A DNA stretch of 64,000 bases, from NCBI GenBank assembly GCA_947630055.1, contig CANRGA010000003.1:1050-65049 (forward strand), in the 5' to 3' direction. A program made the translations under genes and the position numbers. Shown here piece by piece: positions 8,354 through 49,841 of this stretch. The notes beneath the pieces were generated by a model. The model did not search any database, was not told the origin of the DNA, and was given only the letters and a program-made list of their open reading frames with translations. The stretch comes from an uncultured Bacilli bacterium (lineage in GTDB: Bacteria; Bacillota_I; Bacilli_A; RF39; UBA660). How positions within the stretch are numbered: the first letter of the stretch is position 1; every line of letters starts with the position of its first letter.

Positions 8354-8668
8354 ATGTTAAAAATGGATTTGGAGTATAAGCAAAATATACTTTTTATACG
8401 CTTAGATGGTGAATTAAAAAGGAAGTCTTGTTATAAACTTAATAACTATTTAAATCCTGTACTTGCTAAACATAAAATAAAAAAAGCAATTATTAATTTA
8501 GCTAATTTAAAAAGTATTGATCAACAAGGACTTGATGCCATTTTAAGATTAAAATGTACTATGCGCAAAAATCACGGAATTATACTTATATGCCATTTAC
8601 CTCAAAATTTAAGTAAAGCTTTAAAATCTTTAAAATTAAAAGTAGTGCCAAAAGAAATTCTGCCTTAA
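8354..8668 (+). CDS. spoIIAA: STAS-domain anti-sigma-factor antagonist (SpoIIAA-like)
   Basis: STAS fold pattern (LFIRLDGEL...LANLKSIDQQGLDAIL). Lies directly upstream of a SigF-like sigma gene and the spoVA genes. Confidence 0.7.
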   Translation: MLKMDLEYKQNILFIRLDGELKRKSCYKLNNYLNPVLAKHKIKKAIINLANLKSIDQQGLDAILRLKCTMRKNHGIILICHLPQNLSKALKSLKLKVVPKEILP

Positions 8669-8675
8669 ATTTGAT

Positions 8676-9332
8676 TTGAGGTGTGAAAGGGTGAACTATG
8701 AAGAAAAAATAATAAAAGATAATGAAAAACTAATATGGAAGTTAGCTAGTCATTTCTATGGCGTTGATAAAAATGATTTATATCAAGCTGGTGTAGTTGG
8801 TCTTCTTAAAGCCTTAAAGAAATGGAATAGAGATGAAAATACCAAATTTTCTACTTATGCCTATGATTATATTTTTGGTGAAATGTATCTTTTAGCTAGT
8901 AATAAAAATATCAAAATTAGTAAAGATATTTTAAAACTTTATAAAAGTATTGAACATGCTAGATATATTTATGCTCAAAAACTTGGTAAAGTACCAAATA
9001 ATTTAGAAATAGCCGAACTTTTAGGTTTAAGTTTAGAGAGTGTTGAAATGGCGATGAGTAGTGCTAATAGTATTTTATCTTTGGATAATAATACAGATGA
9101 AGTTCGAAGTTATTATGAAACTGTTGGTAAAGAAACAGATTATGATACTAAAATTTTAATTGATGATAGTTTTACAGTTTTATCAGAGGCAGAAAAAGAT
9201 ATTATTAAATCAAGATATTTTGAAGATTTAACGCAAAGTGAAGTAGCAAAAAAACTTAATATGACACAGGTAATGGTTTCAAGATATGAAAAGAAAAGTA
9301 TTAATAAAATGCGCGATTATTTACAAATATAA
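8676..9332 (+). CDS. sigF: Sporulation-type sigma-70 family factor (SigF-like)
   Basis: Region 2 (FSTYAYDYIFGEM) and region 4 (LTQSEVAKKLNMTQVMVSRYEKK). Synteny with the spoVA operon. The true start may be GTG 8691. Confidence 0.75.
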   Translation: MRCERVNYEEKIIKDNEKLIWKLASHFYGVDKNDLYQAGVVGLLKALKKWNRDENTKFSTYAYDYIFGEMYLLASNKNIKISKDILKLYKSIEHARYIYAQKLGKVPNNLEIAELLGLSLESVEMAMSSANSILSLDNNTDEVRSYYETVGKETDYDTKILIDDSFTVLSEAEKDIIKSRYFEDLTQSEVAKKLNMTQVMVSRYEKKSINKMRDYLQI

Positions 9333-11238: not shown

Positions 11239-11268
11239 TTGACTCATTTTAAATTGCTAATATATAAT
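11239..11268 (+). promoter_or_regulatory. Putative sigma-A-type promoter of the DGR target operon
   Basis: TTGACT (11239-11244), 18-nt spacer, TATAAT (11263-11268). Confidence 0.5.
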
Positions 11269-11306
11269 TAATTTGTATGATAGAAAAGGAATAGTTGATG
11301 TGAAAA

Positions 11307-11798
11307 ATGAATAAAATAATGGAAAAAATAAAAAGCTTAGATAAGAAAGAAGTCATAGCTATAATTGGTATTTTGTTAATAATGATGGCGCTATTTATGC
11401 TTCCTCGGTTTATTTTAGGCAAAGATAATACTTTACCAGAAGTTAAGTTAAGAGAACTGCGTAATAATGGAATGTTTGCGTTAATGATACCTGATGATAA
11501 TCATGAAGGACAATATAAAGAATATACTGGAAACGATTTATTTCCTAAAGGTTATTTACTAAATATTGATAAAAGTTATTGTTTAGATAATGCAGGACAG
11601 GAGGTAAAAGGCGTATTAAGTAGAGTAAAAGGTAGTAACAGTGTTACATTAAAAAGTAATCAAACAGTCTATTGTACATTGTACTTTGAACATTCAGCAG
11701 CAGTTGTATTAATTTATAATAATACAATAAAACAAAAAACAGGTTGTACAAATGTCCAATGTGCTTTAGATGAATTATACACAGTAAGTTATTATTAG
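11307..11798 (+). CDS. TM-anchored small surface protein, stand-alone copy of the N-terminal module of the 36185/48384 paralogs
   Basis: N-terminal TM. LPEVKLRELRNN...TVYCTLYFE aligns with LPEVKLKEIVNKNK...TVYCTVYFD of the paralogs. The C-terminus has TNVQCALDELY, like the target protein N-terminus. Confidence 0.7.
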   Translation: MNKIMEKIKSLDKKEVIAIIGILLIMMALFMLPRFILGKDNTLPEVKLRELRNNGMFALMIPDDNHEGQYKEYTGNDLFPKGYLLNIDKSYCLDNAGQEVKGVLSRVKGSNSVTLKSNQTVYCTLYFEHSAAVVLIYNNTIKQKTGCTNVQCALDELYTVSYY

Positions 11799-11813
11799 AA
11801 AGAGGTATAGATA

Positions 11814-13274
11814 ATGAAGAAAGTAATAAAAAATAATTATAAATTAATAATAGGTATAATCATAGGACTTGTAATATCAGTAAGTGGTGTATATGCTGCT
11901 ACTGCAATAATTCAAAGTAAAGAAGTTAACTATGATAATTCATCAAGTCATGGTTCATATACTAATGTTCAAGATTCAATAGATGAACTATACGAAAGAA
12001 GTGGCTTGACAAAATCAAAATGGGTAGATTCAACATTAAATGGTAATGATCCAGTATTAGGAGAAGGAATGATACCAGTCACTATAGATGGTAATGGTAA
12101 AGTTTACTATGCTAGTGAATATACAGAATGGTATAACTATAGTGAAAAGAGATGGGCTAATGCAGTTATATTGACAAGTTCAGCTAGTAAATATTCTGCT
12201 GGTCAAGAAATACCAGATAAAGATATTAAAGGATACTTTGTATGGATACCAAGATATAGTTATAAAATTTGGAATGATGGTAACTATACTAAAACAATGA
12301 CTTTAACAGATTTAAAGAATACAAAAGAAACAGCTACGGATGAAGGAGCATTATGGAAAATAACTGGAAATAATACTAGAATAATAGATATTAAATTTGT
12401 TGGAAAAGATACAACTGATACTGGTGATAGTGTAGGACAATATTTAACTCATCCAGCATTTAAACTAGGAAGTAAAGTATTAACTGGTATATGGGTAGGA
12501 AAATTTGAAACTGGTGGATCTAGTACAGATACAATGGTGGTAAAGCCTGGTGTTGTATCATGGAGAAATAAAACGGTAAAAGAATTTTTTGATGCTGGCA
12601 AAAGTTTTGCTCAAAAACTAGATAGCCATATGATGAAAAATACAGAATGGGGAGCTGCTGCATACTTATCTCATTCACAATATGGTATAGGAAATGAAGT
12701 AAATATCAATAATGCAAGTGATTATTATACAGGTTATAGTGCAGCTCCTGGAACTAATCAAAGTACAATACCAGCAGAATCAGCAGCACATACTGAGGGA
12801 ACAAAAACTCAACCATGGAATACTCCAGTTGGATATCTTGCAAGTACAACCGGAAATATAAGTGGTATCTATGATATGTCAGGCGGTGCTTGGGAATATA
12901 TGGCAGCATGTGTAGAAGGTAAGCCTGGTTCTAGTGGCTTTGAAGAAGGTGCATTATCTACTGAAATGACTAGTGGATATATTGATAAATATCCATCAGA
13001 TAGTGGAATAACAACATATAATAAAAGAATCTTAGGCGATGCCACGGGAGAGATGGGTCCTTTCTATAGTTATTTTGAAGGAAATGGAACATCTTATAAT
13101 CATTCTAGTTGGTATGGCGACTACGCTTATTTCGTTGGGTCGGCGTGGCCTTGGTTCAGTCGTGGTGGCGGTTTCAGCGACGGCGTTATCGCTGGTCAGT
13201 TCTACTTCAATAGGTACACTGGTGAGGCCGTTGGCGGCTATGGTTTCCGGGTTGTTCTTGCTCCAACCAAATAA
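11814..13274 (+). CDS. DGR target (variable) protein: signal-anchored, FGE-sulfatase/C-type-lectin-like C-terminal domain carrying the VR
   Basis: Motifs THPAF..GIWVGKFE, NISGIYDMSGGAWEY (GxYDMSGNxWEW-type) and a terminal ...GFRVVL. The last ~150 nt are repeated four times downstream with adenine-centred differences. Confidence 0.9.
   Translation: MKKVIKNNYKLIIGIIIGLVISVSGVYAATAIIQSKEVNYDNSSSHGSYTNVQDSIDELYERSGLTKSKWVDSTLNGNDPVLGEGMIPVTIDGNGKVYYASEYTEWYNYSEKRWANAVILTSSASKYSAGQEIPDKDIKGYFVWIPRYSYKIWNDGNYTKTMTLTDLKNTKETATDEGALWKITGNNTRIIDIKFVGKDTTDTGDSVGQYLTHPAFKLGSKVLTGIWVGKFETGGSSTDTMVVKPGVVSWRNKTVKEFFDAGKSFAQKLDSHMMKNTEWGAAAYLSHSQYGIGNEVNINNASDYYTGYSAAPGTNQSTIPAESAAHTEGTKTQPWNTPVGYLASTTGNISGIYDMSGGAWEYMAACVEGKPGSSGFEEGALSTEMTSGYIDKYPSDSGITTYNKRILGDATGEMGPFYSYFEGNGTSYNHSSWYGDYAYFVGSAWPWFSRGGGFSDGVIAGQFYFNRYTGEAVGGYGFRVVLAPTK
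13113..13261 (+). repeat. DGR variable repeat (VR), 149 nt
   Basis: Ungapped alignment to the four downstream 149-nt copies. It is strongly GC-rich and A-poor relative to the rest of the gene. AAY codons of the copies appear here as TAC/TAT/AGT/GGT/GTT. Confidence 0.9.
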
Positions 13275-13320
13275 TTTGTGAACGAAGTGAGCAAATTATT
13301 AACTTTGTTGCTTTTAAATA

Positions 13321-13358
13321 GTCACCCCGCTCTTCTTTTTAAGCGGGGTGACTAATTT
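13321..13358 (+). terminator. GC-rich hairpin/terminator after the target gene (possibly also a DGR target-recognition hairpin)
   Basis: gtcaccccgc (13321-13330) pairs with gcggggtgac (13343-13352), with a 12-nt loop followed by a T-rich run. Confidence 0.7.
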
Positions 13359-13368
13359 TTGTTTATAG

Positions 13369-13827
13369 TTGATAAAAAATTTAATATAACATAAAATGAT
13401 ATTGTAGGTCATAGGTTGTAAAAATTTGCTTTTTTACTTTTTAATTGCTTGATTTATGGCGACAACGCTAATTTCGTTGAGGCGGCATGGCCTTGGTTCA
13501 ATCGTGGTAGCAATTGGAACAATGGCGTACTTGCAGGTCAGTTCAACTTCAATAGGAACACTGGTGAGGCCAATGGCGGCAATGGTTTCCGGGTTGTTCT
13601 TGCAGACTAAAATATAAAAGTTTATTTAAACTTCATCATAATATTATTAATTATAAAGATATTATATCGAAATTAATGTGTTTAAGGACATTATTATGAT
13701 GCTTAATTTAGAAATTTATGACCTTTCTATTTTTAAAATAGGAAAATATTTAACAAAGTATTGTGGTTAGTAGTAAAATGACGAAAATCATAATATGATA
13801 GTAGTGCTAAAAATGGCACTACTTTTA
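13369..13827 (+). ncRNA. DGR template-repeat RNA cassette 1 (TR1 = 13455-13603)
   Basis: Promoter TTGATA 13369-13374, 17-nt spacer, TAAAAT 13392-13397. TR is rich in AAY codons (aac/aat at the positions where the VR varies). 3' flank has a stem 13634-13643/13692-13701. Leader 13406-13417 pairs with 13713-13724. Terminator stem 13800-13807/13816-13823 plus T-run. Confidence 0.7.
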
Positions 13828-13830
13828 TTA

Positions 13831-14296
13831 TTGATAAAAATTTTAATATAACATAAAATATTATTATAGGTCATAGGTTGTAAAAATTCTCTTTTTTTAC
13901 TTTTTAATAACTTGACTTATGGCGACATCGCTAATTTCGTTGAGTCAACGAATCCTTGGTTCAATCGTGGTAGCAATTGGAACGACGGCGTGCTTGCAGG
14001 TCAGTTCAACTTCAATAGGAACACTGGTGCGGCCAATGGCAACAATGGTTTCCGGGTTGTTCTTGCTAGACTAAATTATAAAAGTTTATAAAACTTCATC
14101 ATAATATTATTAATTATAAAAGATATTTTTATCGAAGTTAATGTGTTTACGGACATTATTATGATGCTTAATTTAGAAATTTATGACCTTTCTATTTTTA
14201 AAATAGGAGAAAAATTTAACAAAGTATTATGGTTAGTAGTAAAATGGCGAAAGTCATAATATGACAAGTAGTGCTTAAACAGCACTGCTTTTTTTG
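13831..14296 (+). ncRNA. DGR template-repeat RNA cassette 2 (TR2 = 13918-14066)
   Basis: Promoter TTGATA 13831-13836, 17-nt spacer, TAAAAT 13854-13859. Same leader (aggtcata 13868-13875) and 3' partner (tatgacct 14182-14189). Terminator stem 14267-14275/14281-14289 plus T6. Confidence 0.7.
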
Positions 14297-14388
14297 TGCG
14301 GAAAAATTTTTGAATAGTTTGGCAATTTGGTAGAATTTATGATAAATCAAAAATTGAAAATTTAATAATAGGTTGATATTTATTATAG

Positions 14389-14849
14389 TTGATAAAACTT
14401 TTAATTTAAAATAAAATAATATTGTAGGTCATAGGTTGTAAAAATTTGCTTTTTTGACTTTTTAATAACTTGACTTATGGCGACAACGCTAATTTCGTTG
14501 ACTCAACGAACCCTTGGTTCAATCGTGGTGGCAATTGGAACGACGGCGTACTTGCAGGCCAGTTCTACTTCAATAGGAACACTGGTGAGGCCAATGTCAA
14601 CAGAGGTTTCCGGGTTGTTCTTGCAGACTAAATTATAAAAGTTTATTAAAACTTCGTCATAATATTATTAATAATAAAGATATTTTTTATCGAAATTAAT
14701 TTGTCTACGGACCTTATTATGATGTTTAATTTAGAAATTTATGACCTTTCTATTTTAATAGGAGAAAAATTTAACAAAGTATTATGGTTAGTAGTAAAAT
14801 GGCGAAAGTCATAATATGACAAGTGGTGCTTAAATGGCACTGCTTTTTA
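14389..14849 (+). ncRNA. DGR template-repeat RNA cassette 3 (TR3 = 14476-14624)
   Basis: Promoter TTGATA 14389-14394, 17-nt spacer, TAAAAT 14412-14417. Leader aggtcata 14426-14433 and partner tatgacct 14740-14747. Terminator 14822-14829/14837-14844 plus T-run. Confidence 0.7.
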
Positions 14850-14852
14850 TTG

Positions 14853-15315
14853 TTGAATTAATTTTTAATATAACATAAAATGATAATGTAGGTCATAGGT
14901 TGTAAAAATTCTCTTTTTTAACTTTTTAATAACTTAACTTATGGCGACAACGCTAATTTCGTTGAGTCGGCGTGGCCTTGGTTCAATCGTGGTGGCGGTT
15001 TCAGCGACGGCGTTATCGCTGGTCAGTTCTACTTCAATAGGAATGCTGGTGAGGCCAATGGCAATCGTGGTTTCCGGGTTGTTCTTGCTAGACTAAATTA
15101 TAAAAGTTTATTAAAGCTTCGTCATAATATTATTAATAAAAAAAAGATATTATATCGAAATTAATTTGTTTACGGACATTATTGTGATGCTTAATTTAGA
15201 AATTTATGACCTTTCTATTTTAAAATAGGAGAAAAATTTAACAAAGTATTATGGTTAGTAGTAAAATGACGAAAATCATAATATGACAAGTAGTGCTTAA
15301 ATAGCACTGCTTTTA
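14853..15315 (+). ncRNA. DGR template-repeat RNA cassette 4 (TR4 = 14940-15088)
   Basis: Promoter TTGAAT 14853-14858, 17-nt spacer, TAAAAT 14876-14881. Leader aggtcata 14890-14897 and partner tatgacct 15205-15212. Terminator 15289-15297/15303-15311 plus T-run. The central part of TR4 is identical to the current VR. Confidence 0.7.
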
Positions 15316-15350
15316 AATTTTATAAAAATGTCAAAAATTGTCAAAAATGC

Positions 15351-15380
15351 TTGTCAATATTTTTGGTTGCTTGATATAAT
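15351..15380 (+). promoter_or_regulatory. Putative promoter of the MSL-avd-RT operon
   Basis: TTGTCA (15351-15356), 18-nt spacer, TATAAT (15375-15380). Confidence 0.45.
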
Positions 15381-15432
15381 TGAATTGTCTAGAGGGTAGA
15401 GGTTGTATGTTCTTATTTCTGGAGGTATACAC

Positions 15433-15825
15433 ATGAGTAAGATATATAACGAATATTTAAGATTAAAAGCAAAAGATCCTAATAAATTGTATTTATTTAA
15501 GTCGGGTAAATTTTATATATTTGTTGGTGATGATGTTGATACTATAAATAATTATGTTGTTTTAAAGAGAACAAATTTTTCTAATGAATCTCAAAAATGT
15601 GGTTTTCCAGAAAGCGTTTTAGATGATTATTTAAGAGTGTTTAAAAATCATCATTTAGATATTGAAGTAATAACAGAAATAATACCTATTAATGATGATG
15701 ATAGTAAATTAGAAAAGATTACTAATTATTTAAAAAGAATTAAAATTGATAAGATTACGCCTTTAGAGGCTTTTAAACATTTAGTAAGAATAAAGGAAAT
15801 AGTAGATGATGAAGAAAGGAGTTGA
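15433..15825 (+). CDS. MutS-domain-I-like small protein (DGR accessory, MSL-type)
   Basis: ATG 15433 follows ggagg (15421-15425). NEYLRLKAKDPNKLYLFKSGKFYIFVGDDV...CGFPESVLDDYLRVF aligns with MutS N-terminal [30 protein letters not shown]...AGIPYHAVENYLAKL. Confidence 0.7.
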   Translation: MSKIYNEYLRLKAKDPNKLYLFKSGKFYIFVGDDVDTINNYVVLKRTNFSNESQKCGFPESVLDDYLRVFKNHHLDIEVITEIIPINDDDSKLEKITNYLKRIKIDKITPLEAFKHLVRIKEIVDDEERS

Positions 15826-16168
15826 AGATGTCAAAATATATCGTAATTATTTTGACTTTATTTGTTATATAGAAATGATTACGGAAAAATTTCCTAAATA
15901 TACTAAATTTGGTTTTGTTAATATTATTAAGAAAACTTTATATAAAGGAATGGAAGATATATTATATGCTTATAAGTCATTTGAAAAGAGTGATAAGCTT
16001 TCCTATTTAAATGATTTAGATGTTACTTTAAAAATGTTAAAGTTATATGCAAGAGTATCTTATAAGAAAAAATATATTAATGTTAAAAATTATGAGGCAT
16101 GGAGTAGAAAAATAAATAGTGTTTGTACTTCTTTAGGAGCTTGGATTAATGTATGCCTAAAACGATAA
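15806..16168 (+). CDS. avd: Avd-like accessory variability determinant (four-helix-bundle protein)
   Basis: About 120 aa, helical, with a pattern like four-helix-bundle/23S-IVS proteins. Lies immediately upstream of and overlapping the RT, as in canonical DGRs. Confidence 0.75.
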   Translation: MMKKGVEDVKIYRNYFDFICYIEMITEKFPKYTKFGFVNIIKKTLYKGMEDILYAYKSFEKSDKLSYLNDLDVTLKMLKLYARVSYKKKYINVKNYEAWSRKINSVCTSLGAWINVCLKR

Positions 16169-17190
16169 AAAATAGTTTTGATGAAAAATTAACTTTTCAA
16201 AAGTTAATAGAAGCTCATCAAAGAGCTTCAATAGGAAAGCAAAATAAAAAAGAAGTTATTTTATTTGGAGTTGATTTAGAAACTAATATTATTAGAATTC
16301 TCAATGAAATTCAAAGAGGTATATATCGATTTGGAGAATATCGGGAATTTGTTGTTTATGAACCTAAAGAAAGAATAATTAAATCACTACCATATCGTGA
16401 TCGGGTAGTACATCAATGGTATGTAGAAGAATTTATTAAACCTTATTTTTGTAAACGATTTATAAGTGATACATATGCTTGTCTAGATGATAAAGGAACT
16501 CATAAAGCAGTTTTTAATACGCAAAAGAAAATGCGCTATATGAAAAGAAAATACGGCCATTATTATGTTTTAAAGTGTGATATTAAAAAATATTTTTATA
16601 GTATTGATAAGAAAATACTAATGGATATTTTAAGTAAAAGAATGAAAGATAAAAAATTAATAGAGTTTACAAGAACTATTTTAGATGATGGACAAGAAAA
16701 GGGTATTCCAATTGGTAATTTTACTAGTCAATATTTTGCTAATATTTATTTAAATGAATTAGATCATTATGTAAAAGAACAATTACAAATTAAATGTTAT
16801 ATTAGATATATGGATGATTTTATATTTATGTTACCTACAAAAGAAGAAGCTAAAAAAGTTCAAGCAGAAATAACTAGTTTTTTAGCTGATCATTTAAATT
16901 TAACTTTGAATACTAAAAGTAGATATTTTTCTCATAAATTTGGAATAGATTTTTGTGGCTTTCGAATTTATGAAACACATATATTACTTCGTAAAAGGTT
17001 TAAAAGAAAATTAAATAAAAGTATTAAATTGTGGCATATGTTAAAAAAGAAAAATAGATTTTATGATAAGAAGTTTTTATTAAGTTTAAACTCTTATCGT
17101 GGTCACGCTATTCATTGTAATTCTTATCATTTTATGCAAAAAGTAGATGAGAAAATAAAAGATTTATATCCAACAGAAAATAATAAATAA
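16153..17190 (+). CDS. DGR-type reverse transcriptase
   Basis: RT motifs: YRDRVVHQ, KCDIKKYFYSID, PIGNFTSQYFANIYL (the DGR-diagnostic [ILV]GxxxSQ), and YMDDF catalytic box. Confidence 0.92.
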   Translation: MPKTIKNSFDEKLTFQKLIEAHQRASIGKQNKKEVILFGVDLETNIIRILNEIQRGIYRFGEYREFVVYEPKERIIKSLPYRDRVVHQWYVEEFIKPYFCKRFISDTYACLDDKGTHKAVFNTQKKMRYMKRKYGHYYVLKCDIKKYFYSIDKKILMDILSKRMKDKKLIEFTRTILDDGQEKGIPIGNFTSQYFANIYLNELDHYVKEQLQIKCYIRYMDDFIFMLPTKEEAKKVQAEITSFLADHLNLTLNTKSRYFSHKFGIDFCGFRIYETHILLRKRFKRKLNKSIKLWHMLKKKNRFYDKKFLLSLNSYRGHAIHCNSYHFMQKVDEKIKDLYPTENNK

Positions 17191-17210
17191 TGTAAAAAAG
17201 TGTTAAAAAT

Positions 17211-17236
17211 TCTCTAAAAAATAGAGATTTTTTTAA
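17211..17236 (+). terminator. Putative terminator after the RT gene
   Basis: tctcta (17211-17216) pairs with tagaga (17222-17227), followed by a T7 run. Confidence 0.5.
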
Positions 17237-17315
17237 TTTTTAAAGAAATTTTTTCTGAAAAAAAAGGAAATAGAAGGAAAAAAACTAATAATATAAGTGA
17301 AGGGAGGAAAAAACG

Positions 17316-18062
17316 TTGGTACCTATTTTAAAAATTGATCGTAATTTTAAAGCGGTAGTAGCAGATCCGAATGATACTAAATTACTAGAATGTATTTTAA
17401 CAGATATTTTAGATGAAGAAGTACATATAGTAAAATTTATTTCTAATGAATTAAAAATAACAGATTTAATAGTTGAAACAAATAATGGAGAATGTCTACT
17501 TATTGAATTAAATAGTAATTATGATAATTCATTAAAATTAAGAAATTTATCATATTTTACTTCATATTATTCGCAAATAGTTGTAATAAATTTAAATTAT
17601 GGTATGAGTGAAAAAGAACCATTTAAAGAAATATATTATTTAAGAGGAAATATAACAGGAAGAATATATACGGATACTTTTAAAATAATCGATGTAAATC
17701 TTGATAAGTATAAAGAGAAATGGTACGATAAATGTATAGAAGGCGACAAAAAACATATATATCTAGTAATGTTAAATGCTAATTCAAAAGAAATAAAAAA
17801 ATTAAGTAAAAGAGATAAAATAATAAGGGAGTATGAGAAAAAGATGTTAACTTTAACAAAAGAAGGTGTAGTAATAAATCATTTGACACCAAAAGAGGAA
17901 GAAGAAAAATTAATGCGTTCAAGAATACATATGGCAGAAATAGAAGGAATTAATAAAGTTGCAATTAATCTTTTAAAAACAAATATGTCTATAGAATATA
18001 TTGAAAAAGTAACGGGACTTACGAAAAGAGAAATTAAAATATTAAAGGAAAAAATAAAATAA
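17316..18062 (+). CDS. Rpn/YhgA-like PD-(D/E)XK recombination-promoting nuclease/putative transposase
   Basis: TTG start after gggagg. N-terminal pattern ...FKAVVADPNDTKLLECILTDIL...DLIVETNNGECLLIELN... and a C-terminal HTH-like tail (SIEYIEKVTGLTKREIKIL) typical of the family. Confidence 0.6.
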   Translation: MVPILKIDRNFKAVVADPNDTKLLECILTDILDEEVHIVKFISNELKITDLIVETNNGECLLIELNSNYDNSLKLRNLSYFTSYYSQIVVINLNYGMSEKEPFKEIYYLRGNITGRIYTDTFKIIDVNLDKYKEKWYDKCIEGDKKHIYLVMLNANSKEIKKLSKRDKIIREYEKKMLTLTKEGVVINHLTPKEEEEKLMRSRIHMAEIEGINKVAINLLKTNMSIEYIEKVTGLTKREIKILKEKIK

Positions 18063-18120
18063 TTGATAATTAAATAGGCAAGAAAGATAAATTTGTAATA
18101 TAATTTAAGTAGGTGATTTT

Positions 18121-19452
18121 ATGTTAGAAAACAAAAAAATATTAATATTAGGATTAGCTAGAAGTGGTTATCATGTAGCTAGGTTATTAACTGCTAATAA
18201 TAATAGCAATGAAATAATTGTTACAGATAAAAATTTACCAGCTTTTAGTATATTAGATGAATTAAAAGAATTAGGAATTAAATTTGTTCAAAGTGATACA
18301 GCTGAAGAATTATTAGATGATACTTTTGATGTAATGATTAAAAATCCTGGAATTGAACCAACTCATCCTTGTGTAGTAAAAGCCACTAAATTAAATATTT
18401 CTATTGTTAATGAAATGGAGGTAGCTTATCATTATTTACCCAAAGATGTTAAAATTATTGGGATAACTGGTTCTAATGGTAAAACAACTACTACAACAAT
18501 GATATATGACTTAATGAAATTACATCATTTACCAGTAATACTTGGAGGTAATATTGGTTATCCTTTATCTGAAATAGTACCAATGGTAAGAGAAGGTGAT
18601 ATTTTAGTTTTAGAAATATCCGATCATCAATTATATAATTTAAAAGATTTTAAAACTGATATAAGTGTTCTTACTAATTTATGTCCAACTCATCTAGATT
18701 TTCATGGTAATTATGAAAATTATTTAAATATAAAGAAAAAAATATTTAATCACCATACTAATAATGATATAGCTATTATTAATAACCAAAATGAAGATAG
18801 TTTAAAAATAACTAAAGATATTCCATCACAAAAAATATATTTTAATAATGAAGAAAATTATTATAATGATGAAGGTATATATATAGATAAAGAATTAATA
18901 ATAAATTTAACTGATATTAAAATTAAAGGAACTCATAATTATGAAAATATTTTAGCCTCACTTTTAGTATTAAAAGAATTTGGTTTTGATAAAAAAATAA
19001 TTAAAGATTACTTAAATTCTTTTAATGGCGTAGAACATCGTTTAGAAGTTGTCGATAGTAACTCTGATGTTAAATTTTATAATGATTCAAAAGCTACTAA
19101 TCCAACTTCAACTTTGATTGCTTTAAAAACAATGCAAATGCCAACGCACTTAATTTTAGGTGGTAAAGAGCGAAGTCAAGACTTTAATGAATTAAATGAT
19201 AATATTAAAATAGTAAAAAAAATATATGCTATTGGCGAAGTAACAGATAGAGTATATGATTATGCAATGAGTTTAAATATACCATGTGTAAAGTGTTATA
19301 CTTTAGATAGAGCTATGTTAGAAATTAAAAATAATGTTCAAAATAGCGAAATAGTCTTATTATCACCAGCAAGTGCATCATGGGATCAATATGACAAATT
19401 TGAAACAAGGGGCGAAGAATTTAAAAAATTAGTTGAAAAATATTTCAATTAA
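18121..19452 (+). CDS. murD: UDP-N-acetylmuramoylalanine--D-glutamate ligase
   Basis: GLARSG Rossmann start, GITGSNGKTTT P-loop, Mur ligase C-terminal motifs (NDSKATN). Confidence 0.9.
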   Translation: MLENKKILILGLARSGYHVARLLTANNNSNEIIVTDKNLPAFSILDELKELGIKFVQSDTAEELLDDTFDVMIKNPGIEPTHPCVVKATKLNISIVNEMEVAYHYLPKDVKIIGITGSNGKTTTTTMIYDLMKLHHLPVILGGNIGYPLSEIVPMVREGDILVLEISDHQLYNLKDFKTDISVLTNLCPTHLDFHGNYENYLNIKKKIFNHHTNNDIAIINNQNEDSLKITKDIPSQKIYFNNEENYYNDEGIYIDKELIINLTDIKIKGTHNYENILASLLVLKEFGFDKKIIKDYLNSFNGVEHRLEVVDSNSDVKFYNDSKATNPTSTLIALKTMQMPTHLILGGKERSQDFNELNDNIKIVKKIYAIGEVTDRVYDYAMSLNIPCVKCYTLDRAMLEIKNNVQNSEIVLLSPASASWDQYDKFETRGEEFKKLVEKYFN

Positions 19453-36184: not shown

Positions 36185-37546
36185 ATGAAAAGAAAATATT
36201 TAAAAGGTTTAATAGTAATTGTAGGAATAATTATTGGAGGATTATTCATATATCAAGATATAAATAAAGAAAATAAACCATTACCAGAAGTAAAGTTAAA
36301 AGAAATTGTAAATAAAAATAAATCATTTGCTATAATGATTCAAGAGAATAGTGAAACTGATAAATATCAAGAATATAGTAGTAATACATGGCCTGGAGAT
36401 GATTATGTATTTAAAGAAGCTAAATGTATAGATAATAATGGTAATGAAATAAAAGAAGCAGTAACATATGAAAATGATAAAATAACCTTAACTACAAATA
36501 AGACAGTATATTGTACAGTATATTTTGACAAATCAATAATAGGAAAGTTAAGAGAAAATGAAGAATTGGCCAATAAAGATAATTTAAGTAAAGATTTACA
36601 AGGCGGAATGTATAGATATCAAGGAACAGATGATGTTCATAATTGGATATGCTTTGGAACAGAAGAAAATTGTGGAACAAATGATGATAATATAGATAAA
36701 TATATGTATAGAATAATAGGAATAACAAAAGAAGGGCAATTATATTTATTAAAAGAAACATTTTTAAAAGAAGGAAATATAAATAATTTTGCTTGGAATT
36801 CAAAACATACATTGCCAGACTGTCTAGGAGAAGCTTGTGAATGGCCAAATGTGAATTTATATAAGAGAATAAATGGAAAAAGTAATGGAGAAACACCAGG
36901 AAATAATAGTTATCCTGATTATAAAGGCGATACAAATGTCTTTTTAGGTACAAGTGAACATACAAGTCCGTATGAATACTTAACTGAAGGGAACGAATGG
37001 TTCAATTTAATAATATATCATGACTGGATGTATGGTGATACAAATATAAGTTCTTGGAGTAATTCAAATGCATATAATGGAGATTATATGTATGCTATAG
37101 AAACTGGAAATACATCAACAAAAAGAACTTGGCCATATGAAGATATTCAAACAACATGTAGTGATGATGGTCCATGTACAGAAAAAGATTATACATGGAG
37201 TAAAAGTGTACCAGCAAAAATAGGATTAATGTATATGCATGATGTAGATTATGCATATAAAGATGGAAACCCAAGAAATTATGCAAATGTGGCAAATAGT
37301 TGGATACATTTTCAAAAAGATGGATATAATTTATCTCCATCTTATGAGTGGTTAATCAGTCGTTTTGGCGTAGTTGATTCGAGTAGTACTTCTGTAAAAG
37401 TAATGGATGTTGGTTATAATGGTGCATTAACTACTGGAACTTTGAGTGGCTCAGCTGGTAGTCGTCCAACTTTTTATCTAACACCTAGTATAACTTTAAC
37501 TGGTGCTGGTACAAAAGAAAATCCATATATAATTCATTCTATATGA
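36185..37546 (+). CDS. Surface-protein paralog A (TM anchor, conserved N-module, variable C-terminal module ending ...RPTFYL...GTKENPYII)
   Basis: Paralogous to 40873 and 48384 over MYRYQGTD..NWICFGT...IDKYMYRIIG..KETFLKE...MY.HD..YAY.DG...EWL.SR.G...RP.FYL...GTKENP. Confidence 0.8.
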   Translation: MKRKYLKGLIVIVGIIIGGLFIYQDINKENKPLPEVKLKEIVNKNKSFAIMIQENSETDKYQEYSSNTWPGDDYVFKEAKCIDNNGNEIKEAVTYENDKITLTTNKTVYCTVYFDKSIIGKLRENEELANKDNLSKDLQGGMYRYQGTDDVHNWICFGTEENCGTNDDNIDKYMYRIIGITKEGQLYLLKETFLKEGNINNFAWNSKHTLPDCLGEACEWPNVNLYKRINGKSNGETPGNNSYPDYKGDTNVFLGTSEHTSPYEYLTEGNEWFNLIIYHDWMYGDTNISSWSNSNAYNGDYMYAIETGNTSTKRTWPYEDIQTTCSDDGPCTEKDYTWSKSVPAKIGLMYMHDVDYAYKDGNPRNYANVANSWIHFQKDGYNLSPSYEWLISRFGVVDSSSTSVKVMDVGYNGALTTGTLSGSAGSRPTFYLTPSITLTGAGTKENPYIIHSI

Positions 37547-48383: not shown

Positions 48384-49841
48384 ATGAAAGAAAAATATTT
48401 AAAAAGTTTAATAGTAATTGTAGTAGTAAGTTTAATGGGAATATTTATATATCAAAATATAAATAAAGAAAATAAACCATTACCAGAAGTAAAGTTAAAA
48501 AAAATTGTAAATAAAAATAAATCTTTTGCCATAATGATCCAAGAAAAAAGTGAAACTGATAAATATCAAGAATATGATAGTAATACATGGCCAGGAGATG
48601 ATTATAAATTCAAAGAAGCTAAATGTATAGATAATAATGGTAATGAAATAAAAGAAGCAGTAACATATGAAGAAAGTAAAATAACATTAACTACAAATAA
48701 GACAGTATATTGTACAGTATACTTTGATAAATCACTAATAGGTAAATTAAGAGAAGCAGATACAAACAAAAATTTAAGTACAGATATACAAGGAGATATG
48801 TATAGATATCAAGGAACAGATGATGTTCATAATTGGATATGTTTTGGAACGACAAATAATTGTGGAACAAATGAAACAGATAATGATGGGGATAGTATAC
48901 CAGATGGAATAGATAAATATATGTACAGGATAATAGGAGTAACAAAAGAGGGACAATTAAAATTAATAAAAGAAACATTTTTAAAAGAAGATAATAAAAT
49001 TATACCGCTTCAATGGAATAATGTTGCAAAGATAAGTCAGCCTTATACAGGAGTAGATAATGATAAATGTGATGGAACAAATTGTGATTGGCCTAATTCA
49101 ATGTTATTTAAAAGATTAAATGGTTTAAATAATGATGAAACTACAAAGGGAAATAAGGGTAATTCAGAAATATTTATTGATAGTGAATATTATAATTATT
49201 TAAAATCAGGTGATGGAAGTGGATTAGACAATACGACACCAAGTACATGGTATAATATAATAGAAAATCATAATTGGAAATATGGAGATATTTTTGATAG
49301 CGTTTGGGATGCAATACCTCATAATGCAGCTTCTTATGATGGTGATGCTGCATATGCGATTGAAAGTGGCGAATCTAATACTCAAAGAGTGTGGCCAAAA
49401 ATTGGCCAATCATGTAATAATGAAACACCTTGTGAATTAGAAGATTACACTTGGAAAAATAATAATGTAGAAGCAAAAATTGGCCTTATGTATTTGCATG
49501 ATTATTATTATGCGTATTATGATGGTAAGACTGAAAGTACTCGAGGTAAGCCTGGTAATTCTGGTGTATTAAATAATTGTTGGATAACATATTATAAAGA
49601 TGGATTTATTAAACAAAATAATGGAGATTCTGAATTTTTAATAACTCGTCGAGGAATAACTAAAAATAATCCAAATATTGGTTCCTTTTTAATTAGTACT
49701 TGGGCATATGTCACAACAGACAGTATATATATTGAAATAGGGACATCTATATATTCACGACCAGTTTTCTATTTAACAAATACTATTGATTTGTCTGGTA
49801 ATGGTACTAAAGAAAATCCATTTATTATAGATATTGAATAA
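48384..49841 (+). CDS. Surface-protein paralog C
   Basis: The first ~125 aa are nearly identical to paralog A. The C-terminal module is homologous but diverged (…EFLITRRG…YSRPVFYLTN…GTKENPFII). Confidence 0.8.
   Translation: MKEKYLKSLIVIVVVSLMGIFIYQNINKENKPLPEVKLKKIVNKNKSFAIMIQEKSETDKYQEYDSNTWPGDDYKFKEAKCIDNNGNEIKEAVTYEESKITLTTNKTVYCTVYFDKSLIGKLREADTNKNLSTDIQGDMYRYQGTDDVHNWICFGTTNNCGTNETDNDGDSIPDGIDKYMYRIIGVTKEGQLKLIKETFLKEDNKIIPLQWNNVAKISQPYTGVDNDKCDGTNCDWPNSMLFKRLNGLNNDETTKGNKGNSEIFIDSEYYNYLKSGDGSGLDNTTPSTWYNIIENHNWKYGDIFDSVWDAIPHNAASYDGDAAYAIESGESNTQRVWPKIGQSCNNETPCELEDYTWKNNNVEAKIGLMYLHDYYYAYYDGKTESTRGKPGNSGVLNNCWITYYKDGFIKQNNGDSEFLITRRGITKNNPNIGSFLISTWAYVTTDSIYIEIGTSIYSRPVFYLTNTIDLSGNGTKENPFIIDIE

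Follow-up and report, generated by a model that had tools for sequence, protein, structure and literature searches.

The stretch of DNA analysed here, referred to below as the window, comprises 64,000 nt of contig CANRGA010000003.1 (assembly GCA_947630055.1) from an uncultured Bacilli bacterium of the RF39 lineage. On its plus strand, between 11.3 and 17.2 kb, lie a small open reading frame (ORF), the gene of a variable protein (the target), four tandem repeats of ~465 nt (13360-15320) and three overlapping ORFs encoding a MutS-like protein (MSL), the accessory protein Avd and a reverse transcriptase (RT) (Table 1). These are the parts of a diversity-generating retroelement (DGR), and every part named by a preliminary description of the locus (target, repeats, MSL, Avd and RT) is present. 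DGRs are understood as elements in which one invariant template repeat (TR) rewrites one or more variable regions, with diversity limited to the adenines of that template.

Table 1. Features of the DGR locus and its immediate surroundings, in window coordinates (t1 and t4 are the template repeats TR1 and TR4; VR, variable repeat; IMH, initiation of mutagenic homing).
Feature	Coordinates	Strand	Remarks
Small membrane-anchored ORF, 163 aa	11307..11798	+	directly 5' of the target gene; ORF call
Target (variable protein) gene, 486 aa	11814..13274	+	N-terminal membrane helix, then C-type-lectin/FGE-like fold
VR, target residues 434-483	13113..13261	+	mosaic of t4 (1-91) and t1 (92-149)
Adenine-free G+C-rich 3' block (IMH-like)	13242..13261	+	identical in VR and all four TRs
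Inverted repeat AATAATTTG / CAAATTATT	13270..13300	+	just 3' of VR; candidate target-site hairpin/cruciform
Terminator-like hairpin of target gene, AGTCACCCCGCT...AGCGGGGTGACT, then T run	13320..13353	+	direct reading of the sequence
Cassette 1	13369..13823	+	promoter-like 13369-13397, TR1 13455-13603, spacer RNA 13604-13796, terminator 13800-13823
Cassette 1 helix arms	leader 13406-13417; spacer 13713-13724	+	RNAalifold prediction
Cassette 2	13831..14290	+	promoter-like 13831-13859, TR2 13918-14066, spacer RNA 14068-14262, terminator 14266-14290
Cassette 3	14389..14845	+	promoter-like 14389-14417, TR3 14476-14624, spacer RNA 14625-14817, terminator 14821-14845
Cassette 4	14853..15312	+	promoter-like 14853-14881, TR4 14940-15088, spacer RNA 15090-15284, terminator 15288-15312
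Promoter-like site, TTGTCA-18-TATAAT with extended TG	15351..15380	+	11/12 matches; precedes MSL-Avd-RT
MSL, stand-alone MutS-domain-I-like protein, 130 aa from ATG	15433..15825	+	Pfam MutS_I 1.7e-8
Avd accessory protein, 120 aa	15806..16168	+	Pfam bAvd 60.9 bits (cut-off 40); overlaps RT start
DGR reverse transcriptase, 345 aa	16153..17190	+	IGNFTSQ (...GIPIGNFTSQ...), YMDD; Pfam RVT_1
Rpn/PD-(D/E)XK nuclease-like gene	17316..18062	+	follows RT; sub-cut-off profile scores

The RT contains both of the motifs from which the preliminary description had recognised it. Its best relative among solved structures was 8ub7_A, an RT of 328 aa aligned over RT residues 3-329, that is, over the full length (163.6 bits, 7.5e-47); we take this structure to be the bRT-Avd-RNA complex of a Bordetella phage. 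Group II intron and retron RTs of known structure reached at most 57 bits, and the NCBIfam group II, retron and Drt models all scored far under their cut-offs on this protein, which sets the enzyme apart from those families. The Avd ORF, rightly described as overlapping the start of the RT gene, passed the Pfam cut-off and fell just below that of the NCBIfam model DivGenRetAVD (75.9 against 80 bits). The ORF previously called MutS-I-like deserved that name as well. In the ORF list it starts at TTG 15403, while the independent assembly L081 calls a protein of 130 aa, as from ATG 15433. In NCBIfam it matched the MutS N-terminus only, and a sequence search against solved structures gave no match. 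A MutS_I domain on an ORF of 130-140 aa beside Avd, with no HRDC gene, assigns the element to the MSL type of DGR ("Architecture D"). To place it among its relatives, we scanned one genome per species with an RT profile and obtained 80 loci, nearly all from gut metagenome-assembled "Bacilli"; MSL adjoins Avd-RT in most of them.

The target scored 28 bits with the Pfam FGE-sulfatase profile (cut-off 23.3). An AlphaFold2 model of the protein, made with 20 homologues from related loci (pLDDT 72.7, pTM 0.78), has a helix at residues 9-23, and a Foldseek comparison of this model with solved structures ranked the variable proteins TaqVP (5vf4, 1.3e-8) and Mtd (1yu*) best, followed by FGE enzymes. 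By profile and by fold match, the VR thus lies in a C-type lectin/FGE-like fold at the C-terminus of the target, just as had been proposed; the ORF ends in ...GFRVVLAPTK. The preliminary description had also taken the repeated stretch for the last 149 nt of the gene. The stretch does recur downstream, but a further 13 nt, stop codon included, follow it in the gene.

The 20-mer GGTTTCCGGGTTGTTCTTGC ends the VR and all TRs; it occurs five times without mismatch in the window, and 100 shuffles contained no copy. VR and TRs are identical throughout the 3' G+C-rich block and diverge right after it. DNA folds of the window and 17 relatives revealed a stem-loop 5-15 nt 3' of the VR, in most of them with a near-perfect stem of 8-14 bp (short or unclear in L001, L026 and L052). 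The sequences of these stem-loops are unrelated among loci, a TAAC motif often follows them, and the TR cassettes have no 3' hairpin of this kind. A hairpin or cruciform 3' of the VR is described in the literature as needed for target recognition during homing. By analogy with those accounts, the stem-loop behind the VR may correspond to that recognition element.

The VR stretch (149-150 nt, 13113-13261/2) recurs at 13455, 13918, 14476 and 14940 with 80-91% identity, and no further VR/TR copy or second target C-terminal domain was found elsewhere within the window. The four downstream copies (t1 to t4) hold 11, 11, 10 and 7 AAY codons, respectively, against a single one in the gene copy. Therefore, the downstream copies are the templates and the gene copy is the VR, and the replacement of template AAY codons in the gene, noticed already in the preliminary description, is confirmed. 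Each TR belongs to a cassette of its own, which opens with a promoter-like site (TTGATA-17-TAAAAT in cassettes 1-3, TTGAAT-17-TAAAAT in cassette 4) and closes with a G+C-rich hairpin and T run ~200 nt 3' of the TR; the region counts 10 terminator-like sites, where 0.9 were expected. From this arrangement we infer that each cassette is transcribed separately. A profile hidden Markov model of the spacer found four copies in the window and one per close relative. Hence, in place of one TR per RT, the element possesses four complete cassettes, at least three of which served as templates, as the alleles described below indicate. Cassettes 2 and 3 are separated by an extra ~93 nt (14291-14388). We considered whether this segment is a copy of the array ends and rejected the idea, its identity to the VR-to-cassette-1 and post-cassette-4 segments being 33-40%. 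At another cassette joint, a contig of a different sample (X7) likewise contains 93 letters without a match.

No single template accounts for the VR of the window. Compared with t1, t2, t3 and t4, it shows 6, 8, 9 and 5 mismatches, respectively, at positions other than template adenines (non-A mismatches), and we therefore rejected a single-template origin. The cheapest mosaic found by dynamic programming, t4[1-91] + t1[92-149], leaves 8 changes at template adenines (A changes) and no non-A mismatch, with the switch point lying anywhere in VR positions 79-105. In controls where C, G or T was the permitted base, or where each TR was treated as a pseudo-VR, 3-7 switches were required in 18 of the 19 window tests. 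Extended to three loci (the window and the related loci L037 and L027), the same controls gave 1-16 switches, nearly all still with mismatches. Thus, the adenine-templated change claimed earlier holds for a mosaic of two templates and fails for any single downstream copy. The preliminary description was right to speak of TRs in the plural, four copies being present, but it missed that two of them are needed to explain the VR.

Independent assemblies allowed us to compare natural alleles of this VR. Contigs encoding exactly the small upstream ORF led to the same locus in four other rabbit-gut assemblies. The first allele (L087) differs from the window at 29 VR positions, all within 13138-13240, with 1 difference in 1113 nt upstream and none in 305 nt downstream; read as t2, it has 18 A changes and 1 non-A change, and read as t1[1-27] + t2[28-149], 0 non-A. 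Two contigs end within the VR, and neither has any difference in the 1113 nt upstream: L088 has 5 VR differences and derives from t1 over 59 nt (5 A changes, 0 non-A), and L089 has 1 VR difference and derives from t4 over 81 nt (5 A changes, 0 non-A). The last allele (L090) shows 8 VR differences, within 13188-13240, and none in 1113 nt upstream or in 839 nt downstream, the latter including cassette 1 and TR2; its VR corresponds to t4[1-81] + t1[82-125] + t4[126-149] with 8 A changes and 0 non-A.

Given the right template or templates, all five alleles, that of the window included, are thus explained by 5-18 A changes and 0 non-A; controls with C, G or T as the permitted base left 4-16 mismatches. 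Variation is confined to the VR, with 1-29 differences; the flanks have at most 1 difference in 1113 nt upstream and none in 305-839 nt downstream. Of the 34 variable VR positions, 28 fall at an adenine of some template and 6 at inter-template differences (hypergeometric p = 8e-15). The alleles are not misassembled TRs, because each of them differs from every TR at many adenine sites. Identical changes at VR positions 10 and 16 occur in all five alleles, and their 3' parts diverge. Judged from these sequences, the element is active in nature and uses at least three of its four templates, and the preliminary description, which had called the system active-looking and expected adenine-templated polymorphism in the VR, is upheld by same-strain assemblies with near-identical flanks. 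Logan contigs (~5x depth) of the runs containing the locus also break inside the VR; such breaks prove nothing, because the VR has a 55-nt stretch identical to t4.

The RNA structure of the cassettes was studied in an alignment of 20 cassettes, the four of the window and one from each of 16 related loci with a single cassette. In the RNAalifold prediction, the leader (AGGTCATAGGTT in cassette 1) pairs with the spacer (AATTTATGACCT) over 12 bp, a second helix of 8 bp begins right after the TR, and four local hairpins are present. Over the 44 pairs and 20 cassettes, 95.5% of cells are paired. Compensatory changes on both sides occur in 25 of the 44 pairs, against 12.4 +/- 2.0 in shuffled alignments (0/500 reached the observed value) and at most 11 when the partners were slid. 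Among the window's own cassettes, 7 of 88 paired columns vary compared with 36 of 169 unpaired ones (p = 0.008), and 174 of 176 base pairs are kept. The avoidance of paired columns by substitutions, together with the preservation of nearly all pairs, argues that all four cassettes are maintained. In the predicted structure, each TR is looped out between two long-range helices. The RNA of the Bordetella DGR is described in a similar way, with the TR looped out between helices. The 3' half of the spacer aligns to the Rfam RT-14 RNA (RF02921), a reverse-transcriptase-associated motif, with two hairpins and the conserved UUUAGAAAUUUAU, UAGUAG and GCGAA stretches in common. Scores of 27.8 and 26.4 bits remain below the gathering score of 48.1, so that the spacer would be, at best, a distant relative of RT-14 and not a member.

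Loci holding all parts usually follow the order target - TR - MSL - Avd - RT, and their flanking chromosomal genes are not conserved. The nearest relatives of the window have one cassette each, as do most of the others; arrays of 2-8 cassettes are found in a few, scattered lineages (L037, L027, L050, L056 and L061). The six cassettes of L037, with a period of 342 nt, retain the enclosing helix, in which cassette 4 shows a compensatory double change, and the VR of this locus is t2 + t3 with 9 A changes and 0 non-A (switch zone 78-95). L027 has two plus two cassettes, and its VR is t1 + t4 with 17 A changes and 0 non-A (switch zone 23-37). Its second two-cassette array (L027:11297-12012) is located ~8 kb 3' of the RT, and t4 from this array gave most of the VR. 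Therefore, templates need not adjoin the RT. In L061, which has two cassettes, the VR is t1 with a t2 patch; every array locus whose contig includes the VR has a clean mosaic. BLAST indicated eight cassettes in L050 and about five in L056; Tandem Repeats Finder reported no long-period array in these two loci, their cassettes being too diverged. Many contigs of the relatives begin inside a VR or TR; therefore, short-read assemblies probably undercount arrays.

The sister strain L082 shows how quickly an array may change. Its MSL and Avd genes are 100% and its RT gene 99.6% identical to those of the window at the DNA level. Its array, of at least five cassettes, differs from that of the window by 4-10% in the TRs and has spacers of 92-96% identity. 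One of its TRs is a hybrid of t3-, t4- and t1-like parts; among the recombinant TRs, TR c resembles t4 in its middle and t1 in its 3' part. Other cassette joints are also present in Logan contigs of further samples. Such evidence means that the array turns over much faster than the adjoining genes and that cassettes recombine as DNA. We also asked whether TRs evolve faster than their flanks; this was not supported, the spacers of the window and L082 having diverged as much as the TRs.

Overall, we consider it likely, from these comparisons of sequences, that the window carries an active chromosomal MSL-Avd-RT DGR with a tandem library of four template cassettes, which acts by successive, 3'-anchored and partial mutagenic retrohoming; this rabbit-gut bacterium would thereby diversify the tip of a surface protein. 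That several templates are in use, as such, seems to us very likely. According to the proposed scenario, the RT-Avd complex would bind any of the four cassette RNAs, prime in the spacer, start copying at the 3' end of the TR and misincorporate opposite adenines. The resulting cDNA would then replace the VR from the common adenine-free 3' block, beside the hairpin that only the VR possesses, to a variable 5' end. In successive events with different cassettes, the newest template would come to lie at the 3' side and older sequence would survive at the 5' side. Replacement of this kind explains the mosaics of two and three segments, as well as the changes at positions 10 and 16 common to five alleles. 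Marker-transfer experiments on the Bordetella element reportedly showed such a gradient, and replacement anchored at the 3' side with a variable 5' end is reported for it (Guo et al. 2008 and 2011). Three layers of diversity would result, namely template choice, template mixing and adenine mutagenesis; in template choice, each template would fix different residues and expose its own set of AAY codons. A probable role of MSL is to protect the cDNA/VR heteroduplex, dense in mismatches, from host MutS; a mismatch-binding domain that lacks the remainder of MutS could act as such a shield. Host MutS cuts retrohoming 5-10 fold in Bacteroides (preprint 10.1101/2024.11.15.621889).

Several explanations compete with this scenario. 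Mosaics could also arise if the RT switched between homologous TR RNAs within one cDNA, with no need of successive retrohoming. Four co-oriented, highly similar template RNAs would indeed coexist, the switch zones of the window, L037 and L027 all lie in stretches identical between both templates, and template switching is known for related RTs (bioRxiv 10.1101/2021.05.13.443781). Yet the nested pattern of the alleles, with the old changes at positions 10 and 16 in all of them and differing 3' parts, is what successive replacement predicts, switching being unneeded; one allele, moreover, changes template already at position 28, and in the structure model every TR is held inside its own leader/spacer helix. 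We therefore regard switching as unlikely. We think much the same, with slightly less sympathy, of mosaics made at the DNA level, where cassettes would recombine with each other or with the VR, through homologous recombination or gene conversion as in silent-cassette antigenic variation, and the RT would copy the resulting hybrid TR. The recombinant TRs of L082, the difference of its array from that of the window in number and content despite 99.6-100% identical MSL-Avd-RT genes, the different cassette joints in contigs of other samples and the PD-(D/E)XK Rpn-like gene next to the RT all speak for it. On the other hand, the arrays of L090 and L087 are identical to that of the window over 839 and 305 nt, as far as the contigs reach, and their VRs are different; compared with an existing cassette, each mosaic segment has changed in the adenine-specific manner only, and simple gene conversion from a TR would leave adenines unchanged. 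Finally, one cassette might be functional and the rest decaying tandem duplicates, or strain variants stacked in assembly. Close relatives do have single cassettes, and short-read metagenome assemblies often mishandle repeats. However, the alleles trace to three different cassettes, and all four keep promoter, terminator and nearly all base pairs, with substitutions avoiding paired columns. The cassettes are also 8-15% apart and have unique junctions, including the 93-nt extra spacer; Logan contigs from four source-sample runs cross every junction with zero differences, and the independent assembly L081 is 100% identical over 13545-18200. This last explanation thus appears highly improbable.

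Some observations do weigh against successive retrohoming from a four-cassette library. The one run with raw reads (X10) does not contain the locus; the alleles are per-sample consensus sequences of assembled contigs, with one study supplying three of the samples. None of the five alleles was templated by TR3, and no RNA run contains the locus. Since cassettes recombine as DNA in L082, a mosaic VR could in principle have been copied from a hybrid TR that later disappeared.

It is tempting to suppose that the array is written as well as read, with mutagenised cDNA or a diversified VR being copied back into a cassette at times. We hold this to be possible, though rather doubtful. Several hints point in this direction: t4 has 7 AAY codons and 24 adenines, compared with 10-11 and 34-36 in t1-t3, from which it differs mostly at AAY codons; 22 of the 33 columns varying among the four TRs involve adenine; and TR b of L082 (L082:709-857) has A-to-N changes against t3 at positions 10, 16 and 26, the sites changed in the VR alleles as well, as though this template had itself been rewritten in part. 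Against it, the spacers and leaders of L082 have diverged like its TRs, and ordinary recombination and whole-cassette exchange may explain everything. If write-back did take place, useful binding-site variants would be stored as heritable templates (a kind of "memory") in a self-renewing array, and separate promoters would permit regulated template choice.

Among characterised systems, the DGR of Bordetella phage BPP-1 (mtd VR, avd, one TR, spacer RNA and brt) is a close counterpart in many respects. The RTs belong to the same clade, and Avd is the accessory protein in both. Both place the VR at the C-terminus of a protein with a C-type-lectin fold and have an AAY-rich TR with adenine-specific changes; in both, a structured spacer follows the TR on its 3' side and pairs with sequence 5' of it, and a hairpin lies just 3' of the VR. 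Unlike BPP-1, where one TR lies between avd and brt, the window contains four TR-spacer cassettes, each with its own promoter-like site, and its one VR, which is found as mosaics, is fed by at least three of them. No IMH/IMH* difference was seen in the window, so that the downstream hairpin is the only visible discriminator, and the window element has an extra MSL gene and is chromosomal rather than phage-borne.

DGRs with a small MutS-like (MSL) gene alongside avd and no HRDC gene were described as Architecture D (Wu et al. 2018, PMC5758913), and Msl also occurs in Bacteroides DGRs (preprint 10.1101/2024.11.15.621889). The window element resembles these in encoding a small MutS-domain-I-like protein with Avd and RT, but their descriptions show one TR and, in the texts searched, mention neither tandem TR arrays nor mosaic VRs. 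Surveys list DGRs that have at least two TRs (53 DGRs in PMC11661182; PMC6642488; Zeta crAss-like phages in PMC12386605), and such cases are tallied there, or removed as overlaps (PMC11661182, PMC6642488). For these multi-TR DGRs, no transcription-unit cassettes, conserved RNA structure or alternative or mixed template use are described. Our literature search met multi-TR DGRs only as counts, and found no account of tandem template units, of their RNA structure or of mixed use in alleles. The MSL-type DGR is already known, and multi-template use is a variant that we have not found described. In silent-cassette variation (Neisseria pilE/pilS, Borrelia vlsE) and in chicken immunoglobulin gene conversion with hypermutation, one site is rewritten segmentally. 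The window element shares with silent-cassette systems a bank of unexpressed, non-identical cassettes, mosaics and point mutation on top, while differing from them in the adenine-specific signature of reverse transcription, which would imply a route via RNA and cDNA instead of DNA recombination alone.

Some further observations concern the relatives and the neighbouring genes. A type IV pilin-like GFTLIELLAVIVIL signal opens the targets of L020, L022, L042, L044, L049, L052, L059 and L069, and these may be pilin-like proteins whose tip is diversified; the window target has a plain membrane helix instead of this signal. In L002 (7458-9232), the 3' end of the target runs directly into the spacer RNA, with no separate TR and no VR/TR pair; the cause is either the deletion of VR and TR, in a dead or fused element, or a collapse of the assembly over the repeat. 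In L077 (1670-9249), a stretch of 3.8 kb with target, VR, TR and spacer stands twice in 100% identical tandem 5' of MSL-Avd-RT, as a result of either a very recent duplication or an assembly artefact. The small ORF 5' of the window target may be associated with the DGR. It has no match in Pfam or NCBIfam, and homologues precede the target in L002 and L005 as well. Two other ORFs of the window (36185-37546 and 48384-49841) have an N-terminal module paralogous to it, 35-40% identical, and do not contain the variable C-terminal domain. We rejected these two as further DGR targets, since only the N-terminal module, and not the VR domain, is in common.

The Rpn-like gene following the RT remained below the cut-offs of both profiles that it matched (Pfam PDDEXK_2, 23.1 bits against 27.4; NCBIfam Rpn family, 29.7 against 52.1). 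Among the relatives, a homologue follows the RT only in L003, and any link between this gene and the adjacent DGR would be conjectural. Strains L082, L084 and L085 have a shorter version of the gene (201 aa), with ~110 nt of window sequence (17914-18022) absent. Farther upstream, at 8354-9332 of the window (L087:2048-3026), genes for a STAS-domain and a sigma-70-family protein stand in this order, 22 nt apart, ahead of spoVAC-spoVAD-spoVAE; no anti-sigma kinase gene was called between the STAS-domain and sigma-70-family genes.

Multi-template use has practical consequences as well. DGR finders that usually demand one TR and adenine-only mismatches would score non-A errors or discard the extra TRs of such an element, and the multi-template layout could be copied in engineered DGR mutagenesis. 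The same-strain alleles with identical flanks represent a natural system in which to study how the 5' end of cDNA integration is set. For the bacterium itself, drawing on several templates would extend the reachable sequence space of the target well beyond that of adenine mutagenesis, as positions without a template adenine would become changeable too.

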